This document shows positions 30,715 to 33,647 of a stretch of 39,680 nucleotides of DNA, piece after piece. The DNA is from Candidatus Omnitrophota bacterium (GTDB taxonomy: Bacteria > NPL-UPA2 > BS750m-G34), in assembly GCA_016783345.1 (NCBI GenBank), contig JADHWT010000001.1, positions 1 through 39,680 of the forward strand. Reading direction: 5' to 3'. The translations under genes were made by a program, and so were the position numbers. The number at the start of each line of letters is the position of its first letter. Positions within the stretch are counted from its first letter, which is position 1. The notes under the pieces were generated by a model. That model was not told where the DNA came from. It did not search any database and worked only from the letters and a program-made list of their open reading frames with translations.

Positions 30715-31722
30715 ATGGCAGTAAGAATAGGGATAAACGGATTTGGCCGGATTGGCCGGAATATCTTCCGCGCCGGGATGAAGAATAAGGCTGTTGAATT
30801 TGTAGCAGTAAATGATTTGACTGATGCAAATTCTTTAGCGCATCTACTTAAATTTGATTCTATCCTGGGAAATCTTGACGCTGATGTCCAGGCCAAAGAT
30901 AACGCGATAGTTGTAGACGGGAAAGAGATAAAGGTTCTTTCAGAGCGAGACCCATCCAAGCTTCCATGGAAGGACTTGAATGTTGATATAGTTATTGAAG
31001 CAACCGGATTATTCAGAGATCGTGATAGCGCAGGTAAACATATTAGTGCCGGGGCAAAGAAGGTGATTATTACTGCGCCTGCCAAGAATGAAGATATTAC
31101 TATTGTCCTGGGGGTTAATGAAGATAAATACGACGGCAGTAAACACCACATTATTTCCAATGCCTCCTGCACTACCAATTGCCTCGCGCCCGTTGTAAAG
31201 GTGCTGCACGAAAAATTTGGAATTGAGCGCGGATTTATGACTACCATTCATTCATATACTAATGACCAGAGTCTCCTGGATTTTCCGCATAAGGATCTGC
31301 GGAGGGCCAGGGCAGCAGCCCTTTCTCTAATCCCTACTACAACCGGCGCAGCAGTGGCTGTGGGTAAAGTCATACCGGAACTCAATGGAAAGTTAGATGG
31401 AATTTCCGTGCGGGCGCCTACGCCAAATGTATCACTTGTGGATTTTGTAGCTACTTGCAAAGAATCTGTAACTGTGGAATCTATAAACAAGAGTCTTGAA
31501 GAGGCAAGTTGCGGAAAATTAAAAGGTATCCTTGAGATTTCGAATCTGCCGCTTGTCTCAAAGGATTTCAATGGTTCCAGCGCATCTTCCATTGTGGACA
31601 GCGCCTTGACTGCAGTTATTGATAACAAAATGTTAAAGGTCTTTTCCTGGTATGATAATGAGTGGGCGTATTCCTGCAGGGTTATTGACCTCATAAAATA
31701 TATTTCTAAGAAAGGCATATAG
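30715..31722 (+). CDS. gap: Glyceraldehyde-3-phosphate dehydrogenase, type I
   Basis: 335 aa. [10 protein letters not shown], catalytic [12 protein letters not shown], and WYDNEWAYS are present. Confidence 0.95.
31648..31691 (+). repeat. 44-bp direct repeat, left copy (inside the gap 3' end)
   Basis: TGGTATGATAATGAGTGGGCGTATTCCTGCAGGGTTATTGACCT is identical to 33604-33647. Confidence 0.95.
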
Positions 31723-31766
31723 TTACGAAAAGAATTACTATTGGAAAACCGTCTCAGCTTACAGGT

Positions 31767-32999
31767 GTGGTCAAGGCTCCTCCATCTAAGTCATATACTC
31801 AGAGAGCTATTATGATTGGCAGTATAAATGGAAGTTGTAAAATTGTAAATCCATTATATGCAGATGATACCCTTGCAACAATTAACGCATGGAAGGAATT
31901 AGGCGCTGTTATTAAAAAAGAATCTAACCATCTACGAATAAGAGGATTTTATGGGTCACCTTGCCCAAGGGGTCATTCTATAAATGTTAGAGAATCGGGG
32001 ACACTCCTCAGATTTATCTTACCTATAATTGCTTTAGCTAAAGGTAGTTTTAAGGTTTTAGGCGAAAGAACGTTATTAGGCCGTTCCAATAGAACAATTG
32101 TAGAGGCGTTAAAATCCTGGAATATTAGTATCGCGGGAACAGGCAAAGACCATAAACTTCCGATTAAATTAGAAGGAAAAGGAGAAATTCGAGGTGGTAA
32201 AACTTATGTAAGCGGGGAGCAGAGTTCTCAAACAATATCTTCACTTTTAATAGTAGCACCCTTTGCAAAAGAGGATACAACAATAATCGTAAAAGATAAA
32301 TTGGTTTCCAGACCCTATGTGGATGTTACTATTGATGTTCTTCAACAGGTAGGAATACAGGTAAAAAAAGAGAGTTATAAAAAATTTTATATAAGACGTG
32401 GCCAAAGATTTAAGACGCAAAAAAAATTTATAGTTCATGGGGATTATTCGTCGGCAGCTTTTTTAATAGCTGCGGCAAGTTTACTTCCATCAGATGTTAC
32501 TATTACAGATCTTGTAGATGATAAACAAGGTGATAAAAAAATTATAGATATTTTGAAAAAGATGGGAGCGAAAATAAATCGTGTTGATAATGCTGTGAAT
32601 GTTAAAGGTCCATTTGAACTTAAAGGTATCAATATAGATTGTGGCGATACGCCGGATTTAGTTCCTATTCTTGCAGTTCTTGGTTGTTTTGCTAAAGGGA
32701 AGACAAGAATTTACAATATATCTCATTTAGCACACAAGGAGAGTAATAGGATTACTACACCTGCTGGTGAATTGATGAAATTAGGAGCAGATATATCTAC
32801 AACAAAAAATAGTATAATAGTAAAACAATCTTGTTTAAAGCCGGGGCATGTTTCAGCGCGGGGTGACCATAGGATTGCAATGGCACTAGTAATAGCTGGA
32901 TTGAGGATAGGTGATGTAAGAATAGAGGGGATTGAGTGTATTTCAAAGTCTTACCCCGACTTCTTTAAAGATATAAAATCTCTTGGGGTTAAATTTTGA
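31767..32999 (+). CDS. aroA: 3-phosphoshikimate 1-carboxyvinyltransferase (EPSP synthase); true start probably upstream of GTG 31767
   Basis: Has APPSKSYTQRA, the LGRSNR-type loop, GDYSSAAF, DLVP, KESNR and GDHRIAMA blocks. The in-frame upstream sequence (RITIGKPSQLTG, 31731-31766) looks like the conserved first strand but has no ATG, GTG or TTG. Confidence 0.88.
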   Translation: MVKAPPSKSYTQRAIMIGSINGSCKIVNPLYADDTLATINAWKELGAVIKKESNHLRIRGFYGSPCPRGHSINVRESGTLLRFILPIIALAKGSFKVLGERTLLGRSNRTIVEALKSWNISIAGTGKDHKLPIKLEGKGEIRGGKTYVSGEQSSQTISSLLIVAPFAKEDTTIIVKDKLVSRPYVDVTIDVLQQVGIQVKKESYKKFYIRRGQRFKTQKKFIVHGDYSSAAFLIAAASLLPSDVTITDLVDDKQGDKKIIDILKKMGAKINRVDNAVNVKGPFELKGINIDCGDTPDLVPILAVLGCFAKGKTRIYNISHLAHKESNRITTPAGELMKLGADISTTKNSIIVKQSCLKPGHVSARGDHRIAMALVIAGLRIGDVRIEGIECISKSYPDFFKDIKSLGVKF

Positions 33000-33084
33000 A
33001 CAAGATTAAAAAAATTTATCACTAATAGAAAAGTAAAAATAGTATTAGAGCCCTTTTTTGAAAAAAGTATGCAAAGATATTATA

Positions 33085-33439
33085 ATGAAGAAAGTTAACT
33101 TTAGAATTTAAATTTAAATAAGCAATAAGGAAACCTCAAAAGGCTATTTCTTTAGAACTGAGTGATGAGGTCTATGTACGACTTCAGCCTAAAATAAAAG
33201 GAATTCTTGGTTTTACAATTTTACACTTCAGTAGAAATGATTTATTTAAAAAGGCATCTTCTAAAGATACTGGTTTAGAGTTTAAAGAGATAGGAAAGAA
33301 AGGAAATCGTTTCTCCTGTCCTAATTGTGGAGAAGTTATTACTTTTAATAATAAAAAGGAAGCGGAAATTCTTGATGATACCATTAATTTTCATGGAGCG
33401 TTGCTAAACGTGGATGTTCATAATTCTTATAAGTGTTAA
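33085..33439 (+). pseudogene. Decayed ORF (possible small Zn-ribbon/RHH-like protein) in an AT-rich spacer
   Basis: ATG 33085 (MKKVNFRI) hits stops at 33109-33120. A 106-codon open frame with no start codon follows in another frame (33122-33439): ...ISLELSDEVYVRLQP...FSCPNCGEVITF... Confidence 0.4.
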
Positions 33440-33446
33440 AAATTTC

Positions 33447-33475
33447 TTGCCTTCCTTCTTATACTATGCTATAGT
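33447..33475 (+). promoter_or_regulatory. Strong sigma70 promoter with extended -10 upstream of exbBD
   Basis: TTGCCT (33447-33452), 17-nt spacer, TGcTATAGT (33467-33475). Confidence 0.55.
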
Positions 33476-33603
33476 GCCATTAAAATGAAGGTAAAAAAAA
33501 TAAACTTTTCATATCAGGATAAGACCAAAATTGGTAAATTGGCCATATTTGGTTGGCAAAATTTATAATGGTTTGATAATAGAGAGTAACTCCTCGATAG
33601 GTT

Positions 33604-33647
33604 TGGTATGATAATGAGTGGGCGTATTCCTGCAGGGTTATTGACCT
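33604..33647 (+). repeat. 44-bp direct repeat, right copy (orphan gap 3' fragment)
   Basis: Identical to 31648-31691. It encodes [15 protein letters not shown] but lies in non-coding DNA 40 nt upstream of exbB. Confidence 0.95.

Follow-up and report, generated by a model that had tools for sequence, protein, structure and literature searches.

A probable integrase-less island relic carrying aroA at the 3' end of gap in a Candidatus Omnitrophota genome

In a 39,680-nucleotide stretch of Candidatus Omnitrophota DNA (positions 1 to 39,680 of contig JADHWT010000001.1, assembly GCA_016783345.1; hereafter the window, with every feature below on its forward strand), the 3' end of gap, which encodes a type I glyceraldehyde-3-phosphate dehydrogenase (GAPDH), is present twice. 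The 1,956-bp segment set off by this duplication, in which aroA is the only intact gene, is in our judgement (about four chances in five) the relic of a site-specific integrative element, now an integrase-less island resembling the cis-mobilizable elements (CIMEs) of streptococci. A foreign cassette integrated at the gap 3' end, with subsequent loss of mobility functions, had been proposed from the sequence of the window alone (the original prediction); an empty site in close relatives, homology of the segment's right end to an arm beside an integrase gene in another contig, and deletion scars inside the segment support that proposal.

Duplicated gap terminus and empty site in relatives

The 44-mer TGGTATGATAATGAGTGGGCGTATTCCTGCAGGGTTATTGACCT occurs in the window only at 31648-31691 (left core, attL, encoding 15 residues inside gap) and 33604-33647 (right core, attR), on the same strand and with 0 mismatches, exactly as first described (44/44 nt). 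The pair is the longest direct repeat within 28-37 kb, with a spacing of 1956, and 0 of 100 dinucleotide shuffles contained a match. Its borders are sharp: the initial TGG is preceded by cc in one copy and tt in the other, and the terminal CCT is followed by C in one and T in the other. Each copy leads into a tail of ten codons and a stop. The two-repeat structure is not peculiar to one assembly, because an independent SPAdes contig from another sample (NODE_18204, or L001, sample ERZ24794672) matches window positions 20715-33840 at 99.95% identity and spans both junctions with zero differences in or around the insert.

Two close relatives, L005 and L006, were found via the 90%-identity cluster of the gap protein (P0004 and P0003, respectively). 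Both have a single copy of the 44-mer, with gap running straight into exbB across the same 8-nt spacer, and on either side of the site their sequence agrees with the window at 95-98% identity. In the window, the right core continues in frame into a displaced tail (tail A, ...IVKVISCKL*, 33648-33678, stop at 33676-33678) that is now non-coding, equals the left tail in length and stops 8 nt before the exbB ATG at 33687. The predicted reading LIVKVISCKL* after the right copy is therefore present as a frame, and it is the actual end of gap in L005 (P0004); L006 differs by one residue (P0003, LIVKVISSKL*). The right copy had been taken for the ancestral gap terminus, and the L005 and L006 gap ends are as that view predicted, with the restriction that 'ancestral' holds for this species-level lineage only.

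The genes exbB and exbD (33687-34735; Pfam MotA_ExbB, ExbD) are the ancestral downstream neighbours of gap: the suggested synteny comparison gave the order gap-exbB-exbD, with gap directly followed by exbB, in L005-L010, L073 and L074. The gap protein of L074 is 94% identical to that of the window (dS 0.18-0.27 for gap, exbB and exbD), those of L007-L010 fall in the same 90% cluster as the window's (dS to window 0.55-0.79), and that of L073 is 76% identical. Because the close relatives have a single core, and because gap adjoins exbB in four progressively more distant lineages (L074, L007-L010 and L073 having tails other than A), the 1,956 bp is by parsimony an insertion in the window's lineage, and the occupied state is derived.

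The present gap (30715-31722, 335 aa; Pfam Gp_dh_N, Gp_dh_C) ends in a different tail (tail B, ...IKYISKKGI*, stop at 31720-31722; with 5 further nt, 31692-31727) that does not occur in L005 or L006, even though gap from 31021 on is 95-100% identical to theirs. Tail B matches the native gap tail of distant L073 at 21/24 nt and has ATAAAATATATT in common with L007 and L074; the gap proteins of L074 and L007-L010 end in LIKYIT[RS], and no close relative has tail B. Since it is missing from close relatives and yet matches L073 at 21/24 nt, tail B is of outside origin relative to this strain, in line with the earlier suggestion that the left terminus is a replacement brought in with the insert. 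By these tail comparisons gap is now a hybrid, chromosomal up to the core and with its last 10 codons and stop from the element. The tail B ending is the widespread canonical GAPDH C-terminus, so that tail A is the lineage-specific oddity and the element-supplied tail the one canonical across the wider clade.

Tail A is encoded by the leader of exbB, which consists of AAGTTRT heptamers. Such heptamers occur as tandem arrays of 3-4 units at 3630-3659, 30669-30691 and 33656-33684, just 5' of the starts of efp, gap and exbB (7 matches versus 0.18 expected), with a different copy number in L005 and L006. They may be a lineage-specific regulatory or leader motif.

An integrase-proximal arm and the route of insertion

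The last 99 nt before the right core (33505-33603) form an attR-proximal, P-arm-like sequence homologous to positions 3131-3218 of L171, the last 9 kb of the 38-kb contig Ga0315279_10001532. L171 came from a codon-degenerate scan of JGI metagenome contigs for the core, and it is the only one of the 120 loci recovered that has orphan gap fragments. Its order is an HTH_17 (excisionase-type) gene, a gene for a 642-aa Phage_integrase protein, ~150 nt of non-coding DNA and a gap 3' fragment, which begins at the TGG of WYDNEW, the codon at which the core of the window begins, with non-gap sequence upstream. A second orphan fragment 5.5 kb further on also begins at this TGG (57-nt repeat, 94.7%), and the interval between the two fragments holds integrase-less cargo that includes an AbiEii toxin.

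In L171 the stretch resembling the right arm is found downstream of the integrase stop and ahead of the first orphan gap fragment. Local alignment of window positions 33509-33581 with it scores 60 (null mean 16.7, maximum 29, 2000 shuffles), and BLAST returns a 28-nt block at 92.9%. In the window the arm holds ATAAGACCAAAATTGGTAAATT, a promoter-like TTGGCA-16-GATAAT (33553-33580) and, at 33569-33581, core-like TGGTTTGATAATA, a near-copy of the first 13 nt of the core that stands shortly upstream of the core in both arms; the two cores have one difference in their first 30 nt. The arm, the TGG start point and, nearly unchanged, the first 30 nt of the core recur beside an integrase-excisionase pair in a very different host, an arrangement that would be expected for attR of a tyrosine-recombinase element directed at the gap 3' end. 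Insertion into this site by a tyrosine integrase is therefore the best-supported mechanism and, on these sequence comparisons, a probable one.

In the mechanism we propose, attP of the element would have joined the ~100-nt arm to a duplicate gap 3' end, running from the Trp codon of WYDNEW onwards, and to the element's own tail with its stop. A tyrosine integrase of the L171 kind (642 aa, with an HTH_17 excisionase-like partner) would have carried out recombination between this attP and the identical 44-bp stretch of chromosomal gap. The attL product would read gap, core, element's tail, so that gap would stay full-length and gain the canonical C-terminus, and the attR product would read arm, core, old tail, exbB; the core would be duplicated because attL and attR each carry one. 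Later deletions would then have removed the integrase and truncated most of the cargo. The circular attP junction would read ...CGATAGGTT, core, CATAAAATATATT..., and the excised attB would read gap, core, TATTGTAAAAG....

This account must be tempered in several respects. We infer catalysis by an integrase, as well as the order of the decay steps, and for the former the basis is homology of ~100 nt of arm, since the window retains no gene for an integrase, excisionase or relaxase; the original observation that no integrase remains holds, there being no Phage_integrase open reading frame (ORF) within 31692-33603. L171 is the single integrase-bearing relative found. Its host belongs to another clade (gap genes carrying CEYI tails of the L171 type, for example those of L107 and L102, are ~60% identical to the window gap), the cargo of L171 is unrelated, and the full gap gene upstream of its array lies outside the stretch that is readable. 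Relatives of its integrase were found neither in IMG/VR nor, at 1e-5, among all fetched loci. The integrases beside the closest cargo homologues (L011, L012, L067) are unrelated to that of L171 and, belonging to a different family, cannot be tied to this att site. No left (P') arm is recognizable: the aroA leader starts 5 nt after the tail B stop, so any left arm must have been deleted. Finally, the 44-mer is conserved at 42-44/44 nt in L005-L010 and L074, which means that perfect identity is by itself no proof of recent duplication, and the footprint would be identical had RecA mediated recombination through this 44-bp stretch.

This last point leads to the rival that survives best, although we consider it improbable: RecA-dependent import from a related strain through the conserved 44 bp, with no integrase. 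Two routes are conceivable. A circular fragment bearing a gap 3' end could have entered by a Campbell-type single crossover, or homology-facilitated illegitimate recombination could have anchored the incoming DNA in gap at one end and joined it illegitimately at the other; either would leave behind a donor-type and a recipient-type gap terminus. The near-invariant 44-mer could anchor the homology, tail B is a bona fide gap tail, and no integrase is present; recombination between strains does occur at the locus, as the mosaic first third of gap indicates, and immediately upstream is a second strain-specific block, of 7.6 kb, whose junction shows no more than AAAC microhomology (both described below). 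Import by RecA would, however, leave unexplained both the homology of the insert's right end to the integrase-proximal arm of L171 and the start of the L171 orphan gap fragments at the same TGG in a very different host. Native adjacency of gap and aroA, too, is found in none of nine gap contexts (L005-L010, L073, L074 and the window) and five other distinct aroA contexts. A length of 44 bp is, moreover, close to the lower limit for efficient RecA recombination.

A change in the opposite direction, with the occupied state older in the species and L005 and L006 having lost the island by recombination between the 44-bp repeats, is very unlikely. Deletion between the repeats would yield exactly the gap, core, tail A, exbB order observed in these two relatives, and the heavy decay of the island implies that it has been resident for some time. 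Against this stands the adjacency of gap and exbB in four increasingly distant lineages, three of which (L074, L007-L010, L073) have non-A tails that are not derivable from the island; tail A, too, must have been chromosomal before any insertion. Such a history would alter the timing only, the integration event still being required.

That a chimeric join or mis-resolved repeat made the second copy is the least credible of the alternatives. The contig is of the metagenome-assembled-genome type, the exbB-bearing contig L002 of sample ERZ24794679 begins exactly at 33604, and Logan unitigs (k=31) end inside the repeat; yet any 44-bp repeat should interrupt unitigs at k=31, L001 from a different sample is identical across both junctions, and the non-gap DNA at the right junction has a homologue of the same architecture in L171. 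A transposon or integron cassette can be set aside, there being no terminal inverted repeats at 31692/33603 and no transposase, and the repeat being 44 bp of coding sequence.

The start of L002 coincides with the first base of the right copy; a further contig, L003, starts at 33618. Because a 44-bp repeat alone should not break the graph at k=55, occupied and empty variants may coexist in sample ERZ24794679. A difference between the window and L002 at 35745-35838 is merely an N run in the scaffold. The exact 44-mer, with two degenerate positions allowed, had zero matches in JGI metagenome contigs and IMG/VR, and the codon-degenerate core scan had zero in IMG/VR.

Two other leads at the arm and core were abandoned. 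We had considered the right end of the insert as the aroA promoter, in a circular permutation of a promoter-attP-aroA unit. It aligns only weakly, however, with the promoters of aroA in L011, L012 and L070 (local alignment, p=0.016, 0.02 and 0.29), and these matches are superseded by the far stronger homology to the L171 arm. L079, at first taken for a gap gene with an orphan fragment, contains two tandem gap paralogues of a high-GC organism. In L171 itself, the interval from the integrase stop to the arm holds a doubled 16-mer, ACAACACACGTGTACC (3094-3132), which contains CACGTG. The same 46 nt (97.8%) are found at L107 3049-3087, 45 nt past the gap stop, with one copy each downstream of gap in L118 and L102. 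The doubled 16-mer may serve as an arm-type binding site, or it may be a scar that earlier elements left at gap in the clade concerned.

aroA, its eroded surroundings and the upstream block

Immediately after tail B, aroA (5-enolpyruvylshikimate-3-phosphate synthase) with a 12-nt leader occupies 31728-32999. Its product aligns with EPSP_synthase (PF00275, E=5e-100) over profile positions 3-416 of 417 and retains KAPPSKSYTQRA, the N-terminal K-S...R phosphate-binding motif. The frame is open from 31710, and the first ATG, GTG or TTG in it is the GTG at 31767. The lack of a canonical start codon noticed at the outset is real: the codon at 31740 is ATT where the 96%-identical relative L011 has ATG, and this is the one difference in a 20/21-nt match of leader and start, so ATT 31740 is by alignment the homologous start. 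Relative to L011 there is also a 30-nt in-frame deletion after codon 3, the rest of the frame being intact. The ten codons lost (KKCINIIVEK) include NIIVEK, the conserved first N-terminal beta-strand, and a start at GTG 31767 would drop that strand. Public gene calls place the start at GTG 31767 (410 aa) or at ATG 31812 (395 aa), the latter losing the catalytic KS...R motif.

The interval 31728-33127 is 96% identical to L011 1345-3151, where aroA is likewise followed by a CxxCxxCC gene; for aroA alone the nucleotide identity is 96.2%, with dS 0.085 and dN/dS 0.23. The dS of gap, exbB and exbD given above refers to L074, which is from the same sample as L011, and if L011 and L074 belong to one genome these values are compatible with recent lateral movement of aroA between close relatives. 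Homologues of the aroA product follow at identities of 96, 91, 80, 76, 75 ... 55%, the named ones being Omnitrophota, Elusimicrobia or Firestonebacteria; archaeal matches reach at best 40% identity. The sequence APPSKSYTQRA, put forward as an archaeal-like signature, is the normal type for this bacterial clade, an archaeal origin is ruled out, and the donor was a close relative. The lower GC of aroA was likewise correctly seen (GC 0.358; GC at third codon positions 0.226, the lowest of 24 genes measured in the window). It is no evidence of distant origin, because the orthologues are low-GC in every context examined (0.35-0.38).

This type of aroA also occurs in housekeeping settings, in a pheS-aroD interval (L013) and an interval between an IMPDH-like gene and dnaE (L069). 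The aroA-CxxCxxCC pair adjoins integrases or insertion sequence (IS) elements in L011, L012 and L070. As a module (L011 191-4620; L012 12009-12704; L070 2225-5441), with sharply bounded homology between L011 and L012, the pair has a different 3' neighbour in each of the three genomes, namely a XerC-like integrase, a 231-aa integrase, and IS110 and IS91 transposases. The 3' flank of the module resembles a hot spot for insertion, or else the module is recurrent cargo.

Elsewhere in the window (17660-19997 and 56-508) are genes for a PabB-like chorismate-binding protein, a class IV (PabC-like) aminotransferase and GTP cyclohydrolase I (FolE). Folate is thus apparently made from chorismate, which should need a working shikimate pathway. 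With these genes, the dN/dS of 0.23 and a 1.25-kb frame that has stayed intact amid deletions, aroA is probably still used; the ATT start lesion and the missing strand argue against this. If aroA is expressed, it is probably transcribed together with gap and translated from ATT 31740 or GTG 31767.

Between aroA and the right arm the segment is eroded, with at least 4 deletion scars in its interior relative to intact relatives. The first piece (33000-33127) is the 3' remnant of the CxxCxxCC (PF03692) gene, 96.9% identical to L011 3025-3151 and corresponding by tblastn to residues 125-155; 369 nt of this gene, which follows aroA in relatives, have been deleted at microhomology. It is followed at 33126-33254 by a DUF2283-like small gene fragment without its first ~49 nt (93% nucleotide identity to L067 1132-1260; P0008, P0010-P0015), and at 33243-33349 by the C-terminal fragment of a 90-aa zinc-ribbon gene (91.6% to L067 1708-1814, 89.8% to L068; P0009, P0012). 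The latter two have been joined in frame by a ~447-nt deletion into a startless ORF that runs to 33439. The stop-riddled ORF remnant of the original prediction is therefore real: two small genes, separate in L067, have been truncated and fused, and the product lacks a start. Intact counterparts occur in L011, L012 and L070 for aroA-CxxCxxCC and in L067 for the DUF2283-like and zinc-ribbon genes. The remaining AT-rich DNA (33350-33504) gave no match in homologue searches. A strong promoter had been claimed for the insert: three promoter-like sites are present (33058-33086, 33447-33475, in the AT-rich DNA, and 33553-33580, in the arm), all of them consensus matches only. An Rfam scan of the window returned three tRNAs and nothing else.

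Upstream of gap, a 7.64-kb block (22982-30620) is absent from all relatives read (L005, L006, L007-L010, L073), in which a 165-aa Pribosyltran-like gene is directly next to gap or to one GT4 gene. The block encodes a CARDB/NPCBM protein, an OEP/TolC-like protein, an ABC ATPase, two ABC-2 permeases and a HEAT/CBM9 protein, its GC is 0.34-0.39 versus 0.41-0.46 in core genes, and its junction has AAAC microhomology only. It is a second strain-specific insertion flanking gap. Beside it, the gap promoter and first third of the gene (30621-31020) are 75-86% identical to L005 and L006 in 100-nt windows, against 95-100% for the rest of gap, which makes this a recombination mosaic. Import of all of 22982-33603, gap included, as one block is ruled out by the high identity of gap from 31021 on.

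Significance and comparison with known islands

The segment supplies, from an uncultured clade, an example in which attB, attL and attR are defined to the base and which is comparatively dated, and L171 supplies a candidate integrase family for gap. No report of gap as an integration target was found in a literature search, and we know of none. It further indicates that a core biosynthetic gene, aroA, is movable by such islands and can persist as the only intact gene while its surroundings erode. For annotation, gene finders mis-call aroA at ATG 31812 or GTG 31767, and its 'archaeal-like' motif is not to be taken as a sign of inter-domain transfer. Nothing here challenges the current view of genomic islands, the type of island being already known; the main use of the case is as a well-resolved relic and as a pointer to a gap-targeting integrase family.

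A more far-reaching reading, which we offer tentatively and regard as rather unlikely, joins the window and L171 into one undescribed element family, with a tyrosine integrase of ~640 aa and an HTH_17 partner, targeting the WYDNEW codons at the gap 3' end in at least 2 deeply separated uncultured lineages and forming tandem arrays. The relic in the window would then hold the cell's only aroA, started at ATT or GTG on the gap transcript, would have restored a canonical GAPDH C-terminus previously lost from the lineage, and would have placed exbBD under the promoter of the arm.

Among the usual marks of an island, the direct repeats, a single-copy attB in close relatives and a replacement ORF end are all present. 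A related integrase-bearing element at the same target is known from one contig, L171, and the integrase gene is found only beside the homologous L171 arm, none lying inside the element. The attP sites of lambda-type phages comprise arm sites plus a core, and the arrangement described here is similar in its conserved ~100-nt arm between integrase gene and core, in the core-like sequence repeated within that arm, and in the HTH_17 excisionase-like gene that adjoins the integrase gene in L171. It differs in that the arm is known here from sequence alone, no left arm can be made out in the window, and the L171 integrase is unusually long (642 aa).

Tyrosine-integrase islands are known at the 3' ends of protein genes, for example SGI1 at trmE (PMC8409611), and dusA-specific islands occupy the 5' end of their target (PMC4482086). 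Site-specific insertion in a conserved gene, direct repeats at the ends and a replacement gene end that keeps the reading frame intact are common to these islands and to the segment, whereas int and xis are kept and the islands are mobilizable there, and both genes are lost here.

The closest parallel lies with CIMEs and other decayed derivatives of integrative conjugative and integrative mobilizable elements, which occupy the 3' ends of fda, rpsI and rpmG in streptococci; the CIME-type elements among them are integrase-less, measure 1.2-13 kb, and keep both att repeats and some cargo (PMC7563491). In the window, too, both att repeats are kept with no int, xis or relaxase, and the site is the 3' end of a housekeeping gene, fda being glycolytic as gap is. 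The streptococcal elements often stand in tandem with integrase-bearing ones, as L171 suggests for the present case. The differences are the host phylum, the target (gap), the type of integrase, and cargo that is here a core biosynthetic gene. CIMEs are by definition derived from conjugative or mobilizable elements. Neither the window nor the readable part of L171 has any remnant of a relaxase, coupling protein or type IV secretion system; a TrwB-like ATPase does lie near the aroA island of L012, but the integrase there is unrelated. Strict membership needs such descent, and we therefore call the segment CIME-like, after the closest described category.

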